Shown: piece after piece, positions 1,776 to 4,087 of the stretch
How the letters are laid out: the number at the start of each line of letters is the position of its first letter
Position numbering within the stretch: the stretch's first letter is position 1
Assembly: GCA_963812605.1 (NCBI GenBank)
Contig: CAWEWF010000006.1
Coordinates: 96,001 to 160,000 of the forward strand
Origin: an uncultured Verrucomicrobiae bacterium
GTDB lineage: Bacteria > Verrucomicrobiota > Verrucomicrobiia > Palsa-1439
Length of the DNA: 64,000 nt
Direction of reading: 5' to 3'
Notes under the pieces: model-generated
Seen by the model: only the letters and a program-made list of their open reading frames with translations
The model's database searches: none
Told to the model about the DNA's origin: nothing
Position numbers and translations under genes: made by a program

Positions 1776-1920
1776 GCTTCGTGAACAATACCCGATGTCC
1801 CGTGCATGGTCAATGCCGCCCTCAGGGCCAATCGTGCAGAATATTTTCAGTCTGGCTTCATATAGCGGCTGGTAATTCAGCTTGCCGCGCTTGCCAAGCG
1901 CGGCTACAACACGTCGAGAC

Positions 1921-3105
1921 ATGGGAACTCCCGACGAACAATTGGATCTTCTCGCACAGGGTTGCGAGAGCGTCGTCACCCGCGACGAGTTGAAGAAAAA
2001 ACTCGGGTTGGACCGGCCACTCCGCGTCAAACTCGGTTGCGACCCGACCGCACCCGATTTGCATCTCGGCCACAGCGTCGTGTTGCGCAAGCTCCGCCAG
2101 TTTCAAGACCTCGGCCACAAGGCGGTGCTGATCATCGGCGATTACACCGCGCTCGTGGGCGATCCGACCGGCCAGAACAAGACGCGACCTATGCTTAGCG
2201 AAGCCGATATCGACCGCAACGCGAAGACGTATTTCGACCAGGCCGGGAAGATTCTTGATACCGCTCCGGACAAACTGGAAATCCGCCGCAACAGCGAATG
2301 GCTGGCCGGGATGCGTCTGGTCGACGTGCTCAAGCTCATGAGCCAGATGAGCGTGGCGCGCATGCTGGAGCGTGACACCTTTGAGAAACGCTACAAGGCC
2401 GATGTGACCATTGGCCTTCACGAGTTTCTCTACCCGCTCATGCAGGGCCATGATTCGGTCATGGTCAAAGCGGATGTCGAACTAGGTGGGACCGACCAGT
2501 TATTCAATAACCTGGTCGGGCGCGACCTGCAGCGCGATGCGGGCCAGGAGCCCCAAGTCGTCATGATTCTCCCCATTCTCGAAGGACTCGACGGCGTCGA
2601 GAAGATGTCCAAGAGCAAGGGCAACTACATCGGCATCAGCGACACGCCCAAAGATATGTTCGGCAAGACCATGAGCATCGGTGATGAGGCGATGTGGAAG
2701 TGGTACGTGCTTCTCCTCAGCAAGACTCCGGGTGAAATTGCCGACTTGAAAAAGGGTCACCCGATGGAAGCGAAGAAGGCCCTCGCCCACGCCATCGTCG
2801 CGCAATATTACGATGCCACGTCCGCCGACCACGCGCGCGAGGATTTTGAGAAACAGTTTTCAAAAAAAGACCTGTCGGAAATCGCGGAGAAACTCAGTGT
2901 GCCAGCCGGTGAGATTTGGATTGTCGAGTTGGTAGAGAAAACCGGGAAGTTCAAAAGCCGTGGTGACATCCGCCGCATCATCCAACAGGGCGGCGTCACG
3001 TTGGACGGCCAGAAAATCACCGACGACAAGACCAAGGTCAATGTCCGCGATGGGCAGGTCCTCAAAGCCGGCAAGCTGGTCGTCGTCAAGCTGACGGTTG
3101 CCTAA
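1921..3105 (+). CDS. tyrS: Tyrosine--tRNA ligase
   Basis: GCDPTAPDLHLGH (HIGH), GGTDQ, KMSKS, C-terminal S4-like domain; ATG 1921 chosen as start. Confidence 0.97.
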   Translation: MGTPDEQLDLLAQGCESVVTRDELKKKLGLDRPLRVKLGCDPTAPDLHLGHSVVLRKLRQFQDLGHKAVLIIGDYTALVGDPTGQNKTRPMLSEADIDRNAKTYFDQAGKILDTAPDKLEIRRNSEWLAGMRLVDVLKLMSQMSVARMLERDTFEKRYKADVTIGLHEFLYPLMQGHDSVMVKADVELGGTDQLFNNLVGRDLQRDAGQEPQVVMILPILEGLDGVEKMSKSKGNYIGISDTPKDMFGKTMSIGDEAMWKWYVLLLSKTPGEIADLKKGHPMEAKKALAHAIVAQYYDATSADHAREDFEKQFSKKDLSEIAEKLSVPAGEIWIVELVEKTGKFKSRGDIRRIIQQGGVTLDGQKITDDKTKVNVRDGQVLKAGKLVVVKLTVA

Positions 3106-3126
3106 CGCCGCCCTTTCTCGTACACT
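3098..3126 (+). promoter_or_regulatory. Sigma70-type promoter upstream of tRNA-like unit 1
   Basis: TTGCCT-N17-TACACT, ending 13 nt before the unit at 3140. Confidence 0.65.
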
Positions 3127-3139
3127 CCCTAACTTGGAC

Positions 3140-3198
3140 CGGGACGTAGCTCAGCTTGGATTAGAGCGTCCCGAGCACGAAGTGGCTCGGGAAGGTCG
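3140..3198 (+). repeat. tRNA-Pro-derived unit 1 (5' acceptor strand, D arm, substitute hairpin, variable loop; no T arm)
   Basis: CGGGACGTAGCTCAGCTTGGATTAGAGCG-TCCCGAGC-ACGAAGTG-GCTCGGGA-AGGTCG. Confidence 0.85.
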
Positions 3199-3225
3199 CC
3201 GGATAGCTTTATATTGTAAAATGTA

Positions 3226-3311
3226 CGGGACGTAGCTCAGCTTGGATTAGAGCGTCCCGAGCATGAGGTGGCTCGGGAAGGTCGGAGGTTCAAATCCTGT
3301 CGTCCCGACCA
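3226..3311 (+). ncRNA. tRNA-like unit 2: complete tRNA-Pro-type scaffold with the anticodon arm replaced by an 8-bp stem and 8-nt loop
   Basis: Acceptor CGGGACG/CGTCCCG + ACCA, D arm, T loop GGTTCAAATCC; TCCCGAGC-ATGAGGTG-GCTCGGGA in the anticodon-arm position. Confidence 0.75.
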
Positions 3312-3320
3312 CTTTTTCCC

Positions 3321-3641
3321 ATGTATTTTGTTTACATTCTCCAGAGCCTGAGCACTGACCGGTTCTACGTTGGTCAGTGCGATCACCTCATTGAGCGATT
3401 CCTTGAGCATCAGCGTGGCGCCAATCTGGCAACTCGCAATCGTGGCCCATGGTGGATGCCCTATTTCGAAATCCATTCCAGTCGCTCCGACGCTCTCAAA
3501 CGCGAACGTCAGATCAAATCCGCAAAGAGCGCGGAAAGCATACGCCGAATCATCAAGAGCGGTACGTCCGAATTGTACGCTTCGGAGCTCAGCTTGGATG
3601 AGAGCATCCCGAGCACATCAATGCTCCGGGAAGGTCGTTGA
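3321..3641 (+). CDS. Small stand-alone GIY-YIG nuclease
   Basis: MYFVYIL..FYVG..ER..EH..T...GPW..FE....A..RE.QIK pattern; starts 9 nt after the CCA of unit 2. Confidence 0.9.
   Translation: MYFVYILQSLSTDRFYVGQCDHLIERFLEHQRGANLATRNRGPWWMPYFEIHSSRSDALKRERQIKSAKSAESIRRIIKSGTSELYASELSLDESIPSTSMLREGR
3560..3637 (+). repeat. tRNA-Pro-derived unit 3 (degenerate, overlaps the GIY-YIG 3' end)
   Basis: CGGTACGT-[CCGAATTGTACGCTTCGG]-AGCTCAGCTTGGATGAGAGCA-TCCCGAGCA-CATCAA-TGCTCCGGGA-AGGTCG. Confidence 0.75.
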
Positions 3642-3666
3642 TATCGCCACCCCGTTCGCGTACACT
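3638..3666 (+). promoter_or_regulatory. Sigma70-type promoter of the tRNA-Pro gene
   Basis: TTGATA-N17-TACACT. Confidence 0.7.
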
Positions 3667-3678
3667 CTTCCCCGGTTC

Positions 3679-3718
3679 CGGGACGTAGCTCAGCTTGGAT
3701 TAGAGCGCCTGCCTTGGG
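3679..3718 (+). pseudogene. 5' half of tRNA-Pro(TGG), interrupted in the anticodon loop (candidate att site)
   Basis: CGGGACGTAGCTCAGCTTGGATTAGAGCG-CCTGC-CT-TGG-G, then unrelated sequence with no 3' stem, T arm or CCA. Confidence 0.8.
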
Positions 3719-3834
3719 CGTCAAGAAAGCACTTTTCTGCTTTTAGCTATCGCTATCTTAGCCAATGTTTACGGCATTTTTCTGATTTCCGCTTTTGCCC
3801 GGTTTAGCCGAAATATGCCCCAAAAGACCAATGG

Positions 3835-3859
3835 AGTATCAAATGGCAGTATCAAATGG
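3835..3859 (+). repeat. Tandem 12-bp direct repeat AGTATCAAATGG x2 (candidate integrase arm-type sites)
   Basis: Copies at 3835-3846 and 3848-3859, about 120 bp inside the putative att. Confidence 0.5.
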
Positions 3860-4087
3860 GCACTTCGATGAAAGCCCCTGCCGTCGGAGAAATTGGCGTC
3901 AATACGATCTGATACAAAGGAACCAAACCGAGTGCGGCGCTCGGAATATTCTTTCGGTCAGATTCAGAATTCCCAAATAACAAAACTCTTTTGCAGGGCC
4001 ATTGGGGTATGGATTCAACACGTCCAATCAGCATTAATGGGCGGAGGTTAAAACCTGCCGCCCACCAATGAAGAATCATAACTCTCG

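Follow-up and report, generated by a model that had tools for sequence, protein, structure and literature searches.

A probable selfish nuclease-and-hairpin cassette at the tRNA-Pro(TGG) gene of an uncultured Verrucomicrobiae bacterium

This study concerns a stretch of 64,000 nucleotides (nt), here called the window, from the genome of an uncultured Verrucomicrobiae bacterium, in which a small GIY-YIG nuclease gene lies among tandem, partial copies of a tRNA-Pro gene. The genome (designated G000) was assembled from a metagenome and comprises 4.17 Mb in 15 contigs, with 90% completeness. A preliminary description of this DNA had reported four tRNA-Pro-derived units together with a GIY-YIG open reading frame (ORF), and our results place all of them where it did. 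A 15-mer of the D arm occurs four times in the window, at 3146, 3232, 3584 (with 1 mismatch) and 3685, where 0.06 occurrences are expected. All four units are on the plus strand. Unit 1 (3140-3198) consists of tRNA-Pro positions 1-29, a hairpin at 3169-3192 and the sequence AGGTCG, and is without a T arm. Unit 2 (3226-3311) is a full-length spare copy in which a hairpin (3255-3278) replaces the anticodon arm and is followed by a T arm, acceptor stem and ACCA. Unit 3 (3577-3637) is a degenerate tRNA 5′ half that lies under the 3′ end of the ORF; it has a hairpin at 3607-3631 and AGGTCG, and also is without a T arm. Unit 4 (3679-3720) is the first 42 nt of tRNA-Pro(TGG) and, as shown below, has another origin. 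In units 1-3 the anticodon arm is indeed replaced by a variable-loop hairpin, since TCCCGAGC-loop-GCTC(C)GGGA is found between the end of the D arm (AGAGCG or AGAGCA) and AGGTCG, with three different loops and, in unit 3, a bulge of one base. The Rfam tRNA model RF00005 recognizes unit 2 over model positions 1-71 (42.2 bits against a cut-off of 29; E = 3e-07), in keeping with the T loop, acceptor stem and ACCA ascribed to it earlier; its T stem has one non-standard pair. At the site of the 7-nt anticodon loop, unit 2 has 14 nt; its hairpin has an 8-bp stem and an 8-nt loop, and a 5-bp anticodon stem with a 7-nt loop and an anticodon is absent. ARAGORN called no tRNA in the whole window.

Tandem repeats of this kind raise the question of mis-joining, which had itself been named as a way in which the description could fail. 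The assembly has 15 contigs and is 90% complete, and repeats of 29-86 nt can be mis-joined. However, contigs of two DNA runs, which come from one study and maybe from the source sample, match the window with 0 differences over 2998-3148, 3201-3375, 3268-3455 and 3455-3605, and thereby cover unit 2 with the start of the ORF, the ORF itself, and its end with the start of unit 3. Any one public run contained at most 27% of the sampled words. In addition, arrangements homologous to this one exist in independent genomes, and a congener (G012) has unit 1. An assembly artefact therefore has next to no likelihood as an explanation of the units themselves. Since none of the run contigs spans the whole array, the full tandem order is without independent confirmation.

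The nuclease gene (3321-3641, plus strand) encodes a single-domain protein of 106 amino acids (aa), as had been described. It starts 9 nt past the ACCA of unit 2, and its stop codon lies 1 nt past the AGGTCG of unit 3. The Pfam family PF01541 matches residues 1-71 (E = 3.9e-11; 43.5 bits against a cut-off of 22.6) and was the sole Pfam family above its cut-off. Residues Y5, Y16, G18, R26, H30 and E62, which we take to be the catalytic residues, are invariant among four aligned orthologues. TIGR01453, a model of group I intron and phage GIY-YIG endonucleases, reached 18.8 bits, below its cut-off of 56.05, and over residues 2-36 only. The best match to a solved structure, and the sole one, was 1zg2, a UPF0213 protein, with a weak E = 0.049. 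Intact orthologues are 88 aa long and 70-77% identical. Their stop codon falls on tRNA-like positions 8-10, where the same triplet reads GAG in this genome. Consequently, the final ~20 residues of the 106-aa ORF are a read-through into unit 3.

Comparison of the same locus in congeners was informative about the order of events. Orthologues of the nuclease (64-87% identical) were found in G017, G003, G011, G013, G010 and G012, so that, with this genome, 7 of the 18 genomes of the genus carry one. In the first five of these, a real tRNA-Pro(TGG) occupies the position of unit 2, 9 nt before the ATG, and a tRNA-like piece lies behind the ORF. In G017, G003, G011 and G010 this spare copy has a 5′ part with a non-pairing acceptor strand, then a hairpin and AGGTC. 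In G003, G011 and G010 there follow 33 nt (T arm, acceptor 3′ strand and ACCA) that are 100% identical to the resident tRNA; the copy of G017 has a second hairpin that replaces the T arm, and that of G013 is decayed. Behind the occupied loci the host flank continues in the same way as after the lone tRNA of G005. G005, G006 and G007 have a lone tRNA-Pro and no spare copy and represent empty sites, the kind of locus that the preliminary description had singled out for comparison. G009 has two spare copies and no nuclease gene. In G012 the order is unit 1, a real tRNA, a spare copy and a truncated nuclease gene, and its unit 1 (locus L007) has a loop identical to the one seen here. Unit 1 is the host-side 5′ remnant of tRNA-Pro. 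Given the real tRNA at the unit 2 position in the five orthologous loci, unit 2 is a derived state, and from the order in G012 it looks like a real 5′ half fused with the spare copy that followed it. The T-stem variant of the spare copies is that of each genome's own tRNA, being GCAGG/CCTGT here and in G012 and GCTGG/CCAGT in G003, G011 and G010.

These loci bear directly on two of the options that had been raised for the array, namely that RNAs like unit 2 are functional as a guide, regulator or processing signal, or as an anticodon-less decoy, for the nuclease or for tRNA-targeting enzymes. The acceptor stem, D arm and T loop of unit 2 are preserved, as is its ACCA, and its Rfam score is above the cut-off for tRNA. 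It also lies 9 nt before the ATG, so that transcription from a tRNA promoter with tRNA-type processing could release the mRNA. However, it is a real tRNA that stands at this position in the five orthologous loci, and the conserved spare copy is instead found downstream of the ORF, where in four of the five loci it has no 5′ acceptor strand able to pair (the copy of G013 is decayed). Units 1 and 3 have no T arm, the T stem of unit 2 contains a mismatch, and spare copies elsewhere are variously truncated. The folding energies of the units are unexceptional (z of -1.1 to -2.5). Two RNA runs yielded contigs only of the conserved T-arm part of the tRNA, from other organisms, and of the island ends of relatives. 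We therefore regard a role for such RNAs as very unlikely.

The association between nuclease and tRNA gene extends well beyond this locus. In a set of 41 related genomes that includes this one, homologues were found at 71 places in 26 genomes. At 53 of the 71 places a tRNA called by ARAGORN lies within 300 nt, and in 51 cases it is on the same strand, upstream of the nuclease gene in 38 and downstream in 13. A broad set, for which one genome per species was scanned, gave 80 loci from Verrucomicrobiota, Kiritimatiellia, Lentisphaerota, Chlamydiae, Bacteroidota, Patescibacteria, Gammaproteobacteria, Ignavibacteria, Chloroflexota and others; a same-strand tRNA lies within 300 nt at 66 of them, and 8 of the 14 misses are at a contig end. 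Clades of the nuclease follow the identity of the tRNA, with 27 label changes against a mean of 48.3 after shuffling and a value as low in 0 of 200 shuffles, a figure that is inflated by the non-independence of close relatives. Both the upstream and the downstream arrangement occur within the tRNA-Thr clade. At the tRNA-Met, tRNA-Thr, tRNA-Gly, tRNA-Ser and tRNA-Pro loci that were inspected, the opposite side of the ORF carries a partial copy of the same tRNA with a palindrome at the anticodon arm. With the real tRNA upstream this copy spans positions 42-76, and with the real tRNA downstream it spans positions 1-30 or 1-36. The stop codon of the ORF lies within the 5′ part of the tRNA or tRNA-like sequence. 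Four tRNA-Thr loci and the tRNA-Pro spare copies have it at positions 8-10, tRNA-Gly loci at 13-15 and tRNA-Ser loci at 20-22. Nucleases 57-70% identical to the window protein are found at tRNA-Pro(GGG), tRNA-Pro(CGG) and tRNA-Ala(GGC) with the same hairpin type, and some of these loci have tandem arrays of spare copies. An attempt to find partial tRNA copies in this genome by exact 13-mers was abandoned; it flagged only 4 of the 47 non-array tRNA genes, two of which were neighbouring tRNAs that share a T arm, and decayed relics such as those at tRNA-Gly(CCC) are beyond so strict a criterion.

The hairpins are a second consistent component. The TCCCGAG..CTCGGGA type was found in the 4.17-Mb genome only at positions 99169, 99255 and 99607 of contig C6, with a variant at 166998, all of them at the tRNA-Pro locus, which disposes of the concern that it is a genome-wide REP inserted at random. 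Among 13 distinct tRNA-Pro hairpins, 90.4% of the cells pair, and 4 of 8 outer-helix pairs show compensatory change, which was exceeded in 0 of 500 shuffles. Together with the association described above, this agrees with an enrichment of the flanks of homologues for tRNA-like units with covarying stems, which had been proposed earlier as a test. A CCGA..TCGG or CCCG..CGGG core is common to the palindromes of the different tRNA types. Some stand in D loops or in place of T arms, and the hairpins that flank the ORF on either side, in this genome as in relatives, measure 23-31 nt. Hairpins with CCCG or CCGA arms are enriched 10-24 fold near the ORFs: in relatives there are 52 in 52.2 kb beside ORFs versus 6 in 141.7 kb farther off, and in the broad set 73 in 56.9 kb versus 20 in 166.8 kb. 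When the broad CCGA hairpin search was extended genome-wide, it returned mostly other palindrome families, so that it is no specific marker. We also considered an origin of the hairpin from the acceptor stem of tRNA-Pro, whose 3′ strand TCCCGA resembles. This was rejected, as the same core is present in tRNA-Met, tRNA-Thr, tRNA-Gly, tRNA-Ser and tRNA-Ala cassettes whose acceptor stems are different.

The uniformity of the palindrome bears on the remaining option of the preliminary description, in which a classical homing endonuclease cuts native tRNA-Pro DNA at the anticodon arm and the hairpin copies are alleles made immune by loss of the target. In its favour, the anticodon arm is missing from most spare copies, and nuclease clades follow tRNA identity. 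Moreover, published accounts of the phage GIY-YIG enzyme SegB describe cutting within tRNA genes that drives the inheritance and amplification of its own region (PMC2330249, PMC13096335). Nevertheless, an intact tRNA with the presumed target persists at nearly every occupied locus. Immunity would need mere disruption of the target, yet the substitute is always one palindrome type, across tRNAs and phyla, with compensatory changes, and it stands in for T arms and within D loops as well. In addition, nucleases 57-70% identical to the window protein are found at four tRNA species with different anticodon arms. Given that the cuttable tRNA is retained and that a uniform palindrome also replaces other arms, we find immunity by target loss a rather unlikely explanation.

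Unit 4 differs in kind from the other units. The single tRNA-Pro(TGG) of the genome is at C6:166888-166966, ~6.9 kb past the end of the window, and unit 4 is an exact direct repeat of its first 42 nt (C6:166888-166929). Directly upstream of the intact tRNA, on the opposite strand, two adjacent ORFs of 296 aa and 118 aa jointly cover the Phage_integrase profile (positions 5-71 and 107-172); the integrase gene of the island appears to be split. In G006, the tyrS-like gene and promoter, a single tRNA-Pro and a gene for a 3-keto-disaccharide hydrolase follow one another without a break and form an empty site, and the same hydrolase gene also follows the tRNA-Pro(TGG) in this genome. G015 carries the same 42-nt scar behind tyrS, with an insert of ~47 kb and an intact 377-aa integrase beside the tRNA, and is without the nuclease cassette. 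From the repeat, the integrase ORFs, the uninterrupted locus of G006 and the scar of G015, we conclude that unit 4 is the left attachment scar of an integrated island and that 3721-64000 lies inside it. The island measures ~67 kb, continues to window-equivalent 70887 (C6:166887), and has the integrase gene and intact tRNA-Pro(TGG) at its far end. The features of an integrase island, which are a partial-tRNA direct repeat at both ends, an integrase at one end and an empty site in a relative, are all present. This island carries the 5′ part of the tRNA, and the displaced fragment is the 5′ half. A displaced 5′ half is the less usual polarity for tRNA-gene islands. Directly after the intact tRNA lies a fifth unit, which consists of a D-arm piece, TCCCGAGT-CCCAAAAC-ACTCGGGA, AGATC, and a perfect T arm with acceptor 3′ strand; its stem contains a compensatory C-G to T-A change. 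The four apparent mimic units have two unrelated origins, and most of the window is an integrated island. The compact tRNA-parasitic module proposed earlier therefore survives in part: a GIY-YIG gene with hairpin-substituted tRNA copies is found here, in relatives and in other phyla, but unit 4 is no mimic and the four units do not form one module.

A passive origin of the array was also considered, in which the partial copies are integrase or replication-slippage scars, small palindromes later entered them, and the GIY-YIG gene is carried along without a role. Unit 4 is itself an integrase scar, there are other palindrome families in the genome (one of them identical to the hairpin of a tRNA-Pro(CGG) cassette), and G009 and the tRNA-Gly(CCC) locus of this genome have spare copies and no nuclease gene. 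However, the true integrase scar is hairpin-free and ends in the anticodon loop, and the cassette copies differ from it in kind. No integrase was found beside the small cassettes at the loci inspected, the stop codon of the ORF is interlocked with the tRNA-like 5′ part, and the association of gene, tRNA and hairpin holds across phyla. On this evidence a passive origin is improbable.

We favour a reading, to which we assign a probability of roughly 0.55, in which the stretch is a layered scar field at a single tRNA-Pro(TGG) gene that includes a selfish, recombination-driven nuclease-plus-hairpin cassette, and is no system built for tRNA mimicry. The cassette is ~0.5 kb long and consists of a tRNA 3′ half, a 9-nt spacer and the ORF, whose last codons and stop belong at the same time to a tRNA 5′ half. 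It is bordered by an intact tRNA on one side and by a spare copy with the hairpin on the other, and the real tRNA may be on either side. The two tRNA halves would serve as portable homology arms to a conserved gene, which suggests that the cassette is inserted by homologous recombination. After insertion of this cassette, in which the partial tRNA copy is circularly permuted, there would be an intact tRNA and a spare copy whose anticodon arm has given way to the palindrome of the cassette (YCCCGA..TCGGGR). Recombination within the 3′ half would give the order tRNA, ORF, spare copy, with the nuclease gene downstream of the real tRNA, and recombination within the 5′ half would give spare copy, ORF, tRNA, with the gene upstream. 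The nuclease is predicted to supply the break from which recombination starts; its own palindrome, in single-stranded DNA (ssDNA) as with Ssn nucleases, is the most likely place. The palindrome is favoured as the ssDNA site of action because one sequence type recurs across tRNA types and phyla, with compensatory change, and because its CCCG core is common to the Neisseria NTS that is reported in the main text of PMC11893778 to be bound by SsnA. Such a break could drive spread, the growth of tandem arrays and gene conversion between copies. Units 1, 2, 3 and 5 would then be products of repeated insertion and recombination. In a later step, the ~67-kb tyrosine-integrase island would have recombined with the functional copy at its anticodon loop, leaving unit 4 behind and displacing the intact tRNA 67 kb downstream.

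Several signs of selfishness accompany this anatomy, namely the patchy spread within the genus, the truncated copy in G012, the tandem arrays of spare copies and the T-stem variants that match the resident tRNA. The gene may be copied into alleles that lack it after cutting them; the signs seen are indirect and consist of the empty and occupied alleles in congeners and a foreign-looking promoter and 5′ tRNA part in G009. A wider form of the proposal is that minimal selfish elements exist across bacterial phyla, each a ~90-aa Ssn-like GIY-YIG nuclease with its cognate palindrome, and each using permuted tRNA halves as portable homology arms into that tRNA gene in any genome. The palindrome, sitting at an arm of the DNA cloverleaf, would be the single-strand cleavage site, and cutting would copy the cassette, build arrays and keep the spare copies identical to the resident tRNA. 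We put this generalization forward tentatively, as a possibility that is less likely than not.

A number of observations weigh against the favoured reading. No tRNA call lies near 18 of the 71 places in relatives, and 8 of these form one clade without any tRNA link. The close relatives noted above also make the counts overstate the number of separate events. A second large clade, found at tRNA-Val, tRNA-Ser(GGA) and tRNA-Pro(GGG), lies 86-181 nt from the tRNA and is mostly without the CCCG/CCGA hairpin. No hairpin matched the published Ssn-related motif pattern in the 71,006 bases around the 71 places, and neither a circular or excised form nor a fresh insertion was seen. Cleavage of the hairpin or of any other substrate is an inference, as are activity, mobility and expression. 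Finally, the cell would pay a lasting cost for an intact tRNA next to an enzyme directed at tRNA-gene DNA, which the favoured reading does not account for.

Among the known systems closest to the cassette is the Ssn family, which comprises single-domain GIY-YIG site-specific ssDNA nucleases with flanking hairpin repeats termed NTS/SRM; the main text of that study likens the gene and its repeats to an insertion sequence (Chenal et al. 2025, PMC11893778). As in the Ssn proteins described there, a lone GIY-YIG domain of about 90-100 aa is present (~94 aa for Ssn, 88 aa for the orthologues here and 106 aa for the window copy), and the gene is flanked by inverted repeats of 20-50 nt that are able to form hairpins. 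The CCCG..CGGG repeat core is likewise common to the cassette hairpins and the Neisseria NTS printed in that paper. In contrast, the cassette hairpins are inside partial tRNA gene copies, exactly at the site of a cloverleaf arm. The term "tRNA" appears 0 times in the main text of PMC11893778, whose supplementary lists may include tRNA-adjacent homologues. The degenerate SRM pattern published there gave 0 matches in the bases searched around the 71 places and none at 2900-3900 of the window, against 31 in the whole genome.

SegB of T-even phages is the second close parallel. It is a free-standing GIY-YIG homing endonuclease encoded in tRNA gene clusters, and its recognition site is described as ~27 bp centred on a T-arm motif (PMC2330249, PMC13096335). 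As in that case, the GIY-YIG gene here is physically tied to tRNA genes (within 300 nt at 53 of 71 and 66 of 80 loci). SegB, as these accounts present it, cuts within tRNA gene DNA and promotes its own inheritance with the neighbouring tRNA sequence, and it drives tandem amplification of segments by way of homologous recombination. The differences are that SegB is a phage protein, whereas the protein here is bacterial, measures 88-106 aa and is outside that sequence family (18.8 bits with TIGR01453). SegB also differs in size and has an extra DNA-binding part. Hairpin-substituted partial tRNA copies are not part of the SegB loci as they are described in the accounts cited above. By analogy, we lean slightly towards the view that the cassette works like the Ssn nuclease and hairpin pairs and like phage SegB.

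Two other classes of element are relevant. Islands that insert into tRNA genes by means of a tyrosine integrase account fully for unit 4 and the 67-kb insert; the small cassette differs from them in having no integrase, a length of ~0.5 kb and a spare copy that is marked by a palindrome. REP/BIME palindromes with their RAYT transposases, and IS200/IS605 elements, likewise tie a small nuclease gene to short palindromes that act as single-stranded hairpins. Their enzymes have another fold, and no HUH or Y1 motif was seen in the protein here. The cassette hairpins occur solely within tRNA gene copies, with no intergenic spread, the TCCCGAG type being found only here. The comparison with these elements is also raised in the Discussion of PMC11893778. 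In the literature that we searched on GIY-YIG enzymes with tRNA genes, homing, hairpins and Ssn (mitochondrial, phage and Ssn papers), no bacterial GIY-YIG cassette in a partly duplicated tRNA gene with hairpin-substituted arms was found.

If the proposal is correct, tRNA genes in many phyla host a tiny, nuclease-only mobile element that annotation pipelines have missed, as these show only a "GIY-YIG family protein" and odd pseudo-tRNAs. It would also account for a recurrent class of pseudo-tRNA or "tRNA-like" calls. For the Ssn-type nucleases, which are of interest as single-strand DNA tools, it would provide a natural genomic setting and many new pairs of enzyme and site. Furthermore, it would represent a bacterial parallel to the SegB-driven amplification of tRNA genes in phages.

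A tyrS-like gene (1882-3105, plus strand; Pfam tRNA-synt_1b, E = 6.6e-71, with an S4 domain) is the conserved left neighbour of tRNA-Pro(TGG) and lies upstream of tRNA-Pro likewise in G006, G011, G010, G012 and G015. A promoter-like region at 3098-3126 (plus strand; TTGCCT-17-TACACT, read from the sequence) is the native one of tRNA-Pro and now precedes unit 1; by synteny it corresponds to the stretch in front of the lone tRNA-Pro of G006. N17-TACACT promoters had been proposed for both units 1 and 4. That of unit 4 (3638-3666, plus strand; TTGATA-17-TACACT), which stands before the copy that was functional, is the only site there that passes a consensus promoter scan, while that of unit 1 was below the threshold. 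A stretch resembling the unit 4 site precedes the real tRNA-Pro of G009, behind the relic spare copies. At that locus (L033, G009:C6:395300-395630) the upstream stretch is unlike the native one of the close relative G007 (L034), and the native promoter kept in G007 drives a spare copy in G009. The foreign-looking promoter and 5′ tRNA part in G009 suggest that flanking sequence was imported with the cassette.

Further observations were made on the palindromes and on other tRNA genes of this genome. A palindrome family of the form CCCCGAA-n-TTCGGGG has 32 copies, including one at about 1264-1301 of the window (G000:C6:97264-97301), and many are exactly CCCCGAAAGCTTTCGGGG. It is identical to the hairpin behind a GIY-YIG paralogue at tRNA-Pro(CGG) (C14:406521), and the palindrome and paralogue could be an Ssn-like pair of enzyme and repeat that is no longer confined to tRNA genes. 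The genome has two more palindrome families, with 43 and 13 matches. At tRNA-Gly(CCC) (G000:C7:23770-24010), decayed partial copies with CCCCGAA..TTCGGGG hairpins are present on both sides, and a nuclease gene is absent; at the same tRNA, G004 and G010 carry the cassette intact. Elsewhere, 17 ARAGORN tRNA genes, several with low Rfam scores, are packed into ~6.6 kb (G000:C14:750058-756692); tRNA gene arrays such as this one are seen on mobile elements.

The second nuclease clade includes loci L043, L047, L055, L056, L067-L069, L075, L077 and L078 and the place G000:C10:189561-190060. Its members are downstream of tRNA-Val(GAC), tRNA-Ser(GGA/TGA) or tRNA-Pro(GGG), with spacers made up of repeats of the tRNA 3′ end and of hairpins other than the CCCG/CCGA type, and they may represent a different cassette design. 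In the island, AGTATCAAATG occurs twice in tandem just inside the left end (window 3835-3858), and a related sequence, CAGTATCAAATGG, is found at the right end, with the start of the integrase gene on one side of it and the tRNA on the other (C6, about 166815-166840). These motifs may be arm-type sites of the integrase, and the same motif as AGTATCAAATG is present at the left end of the island in G015.

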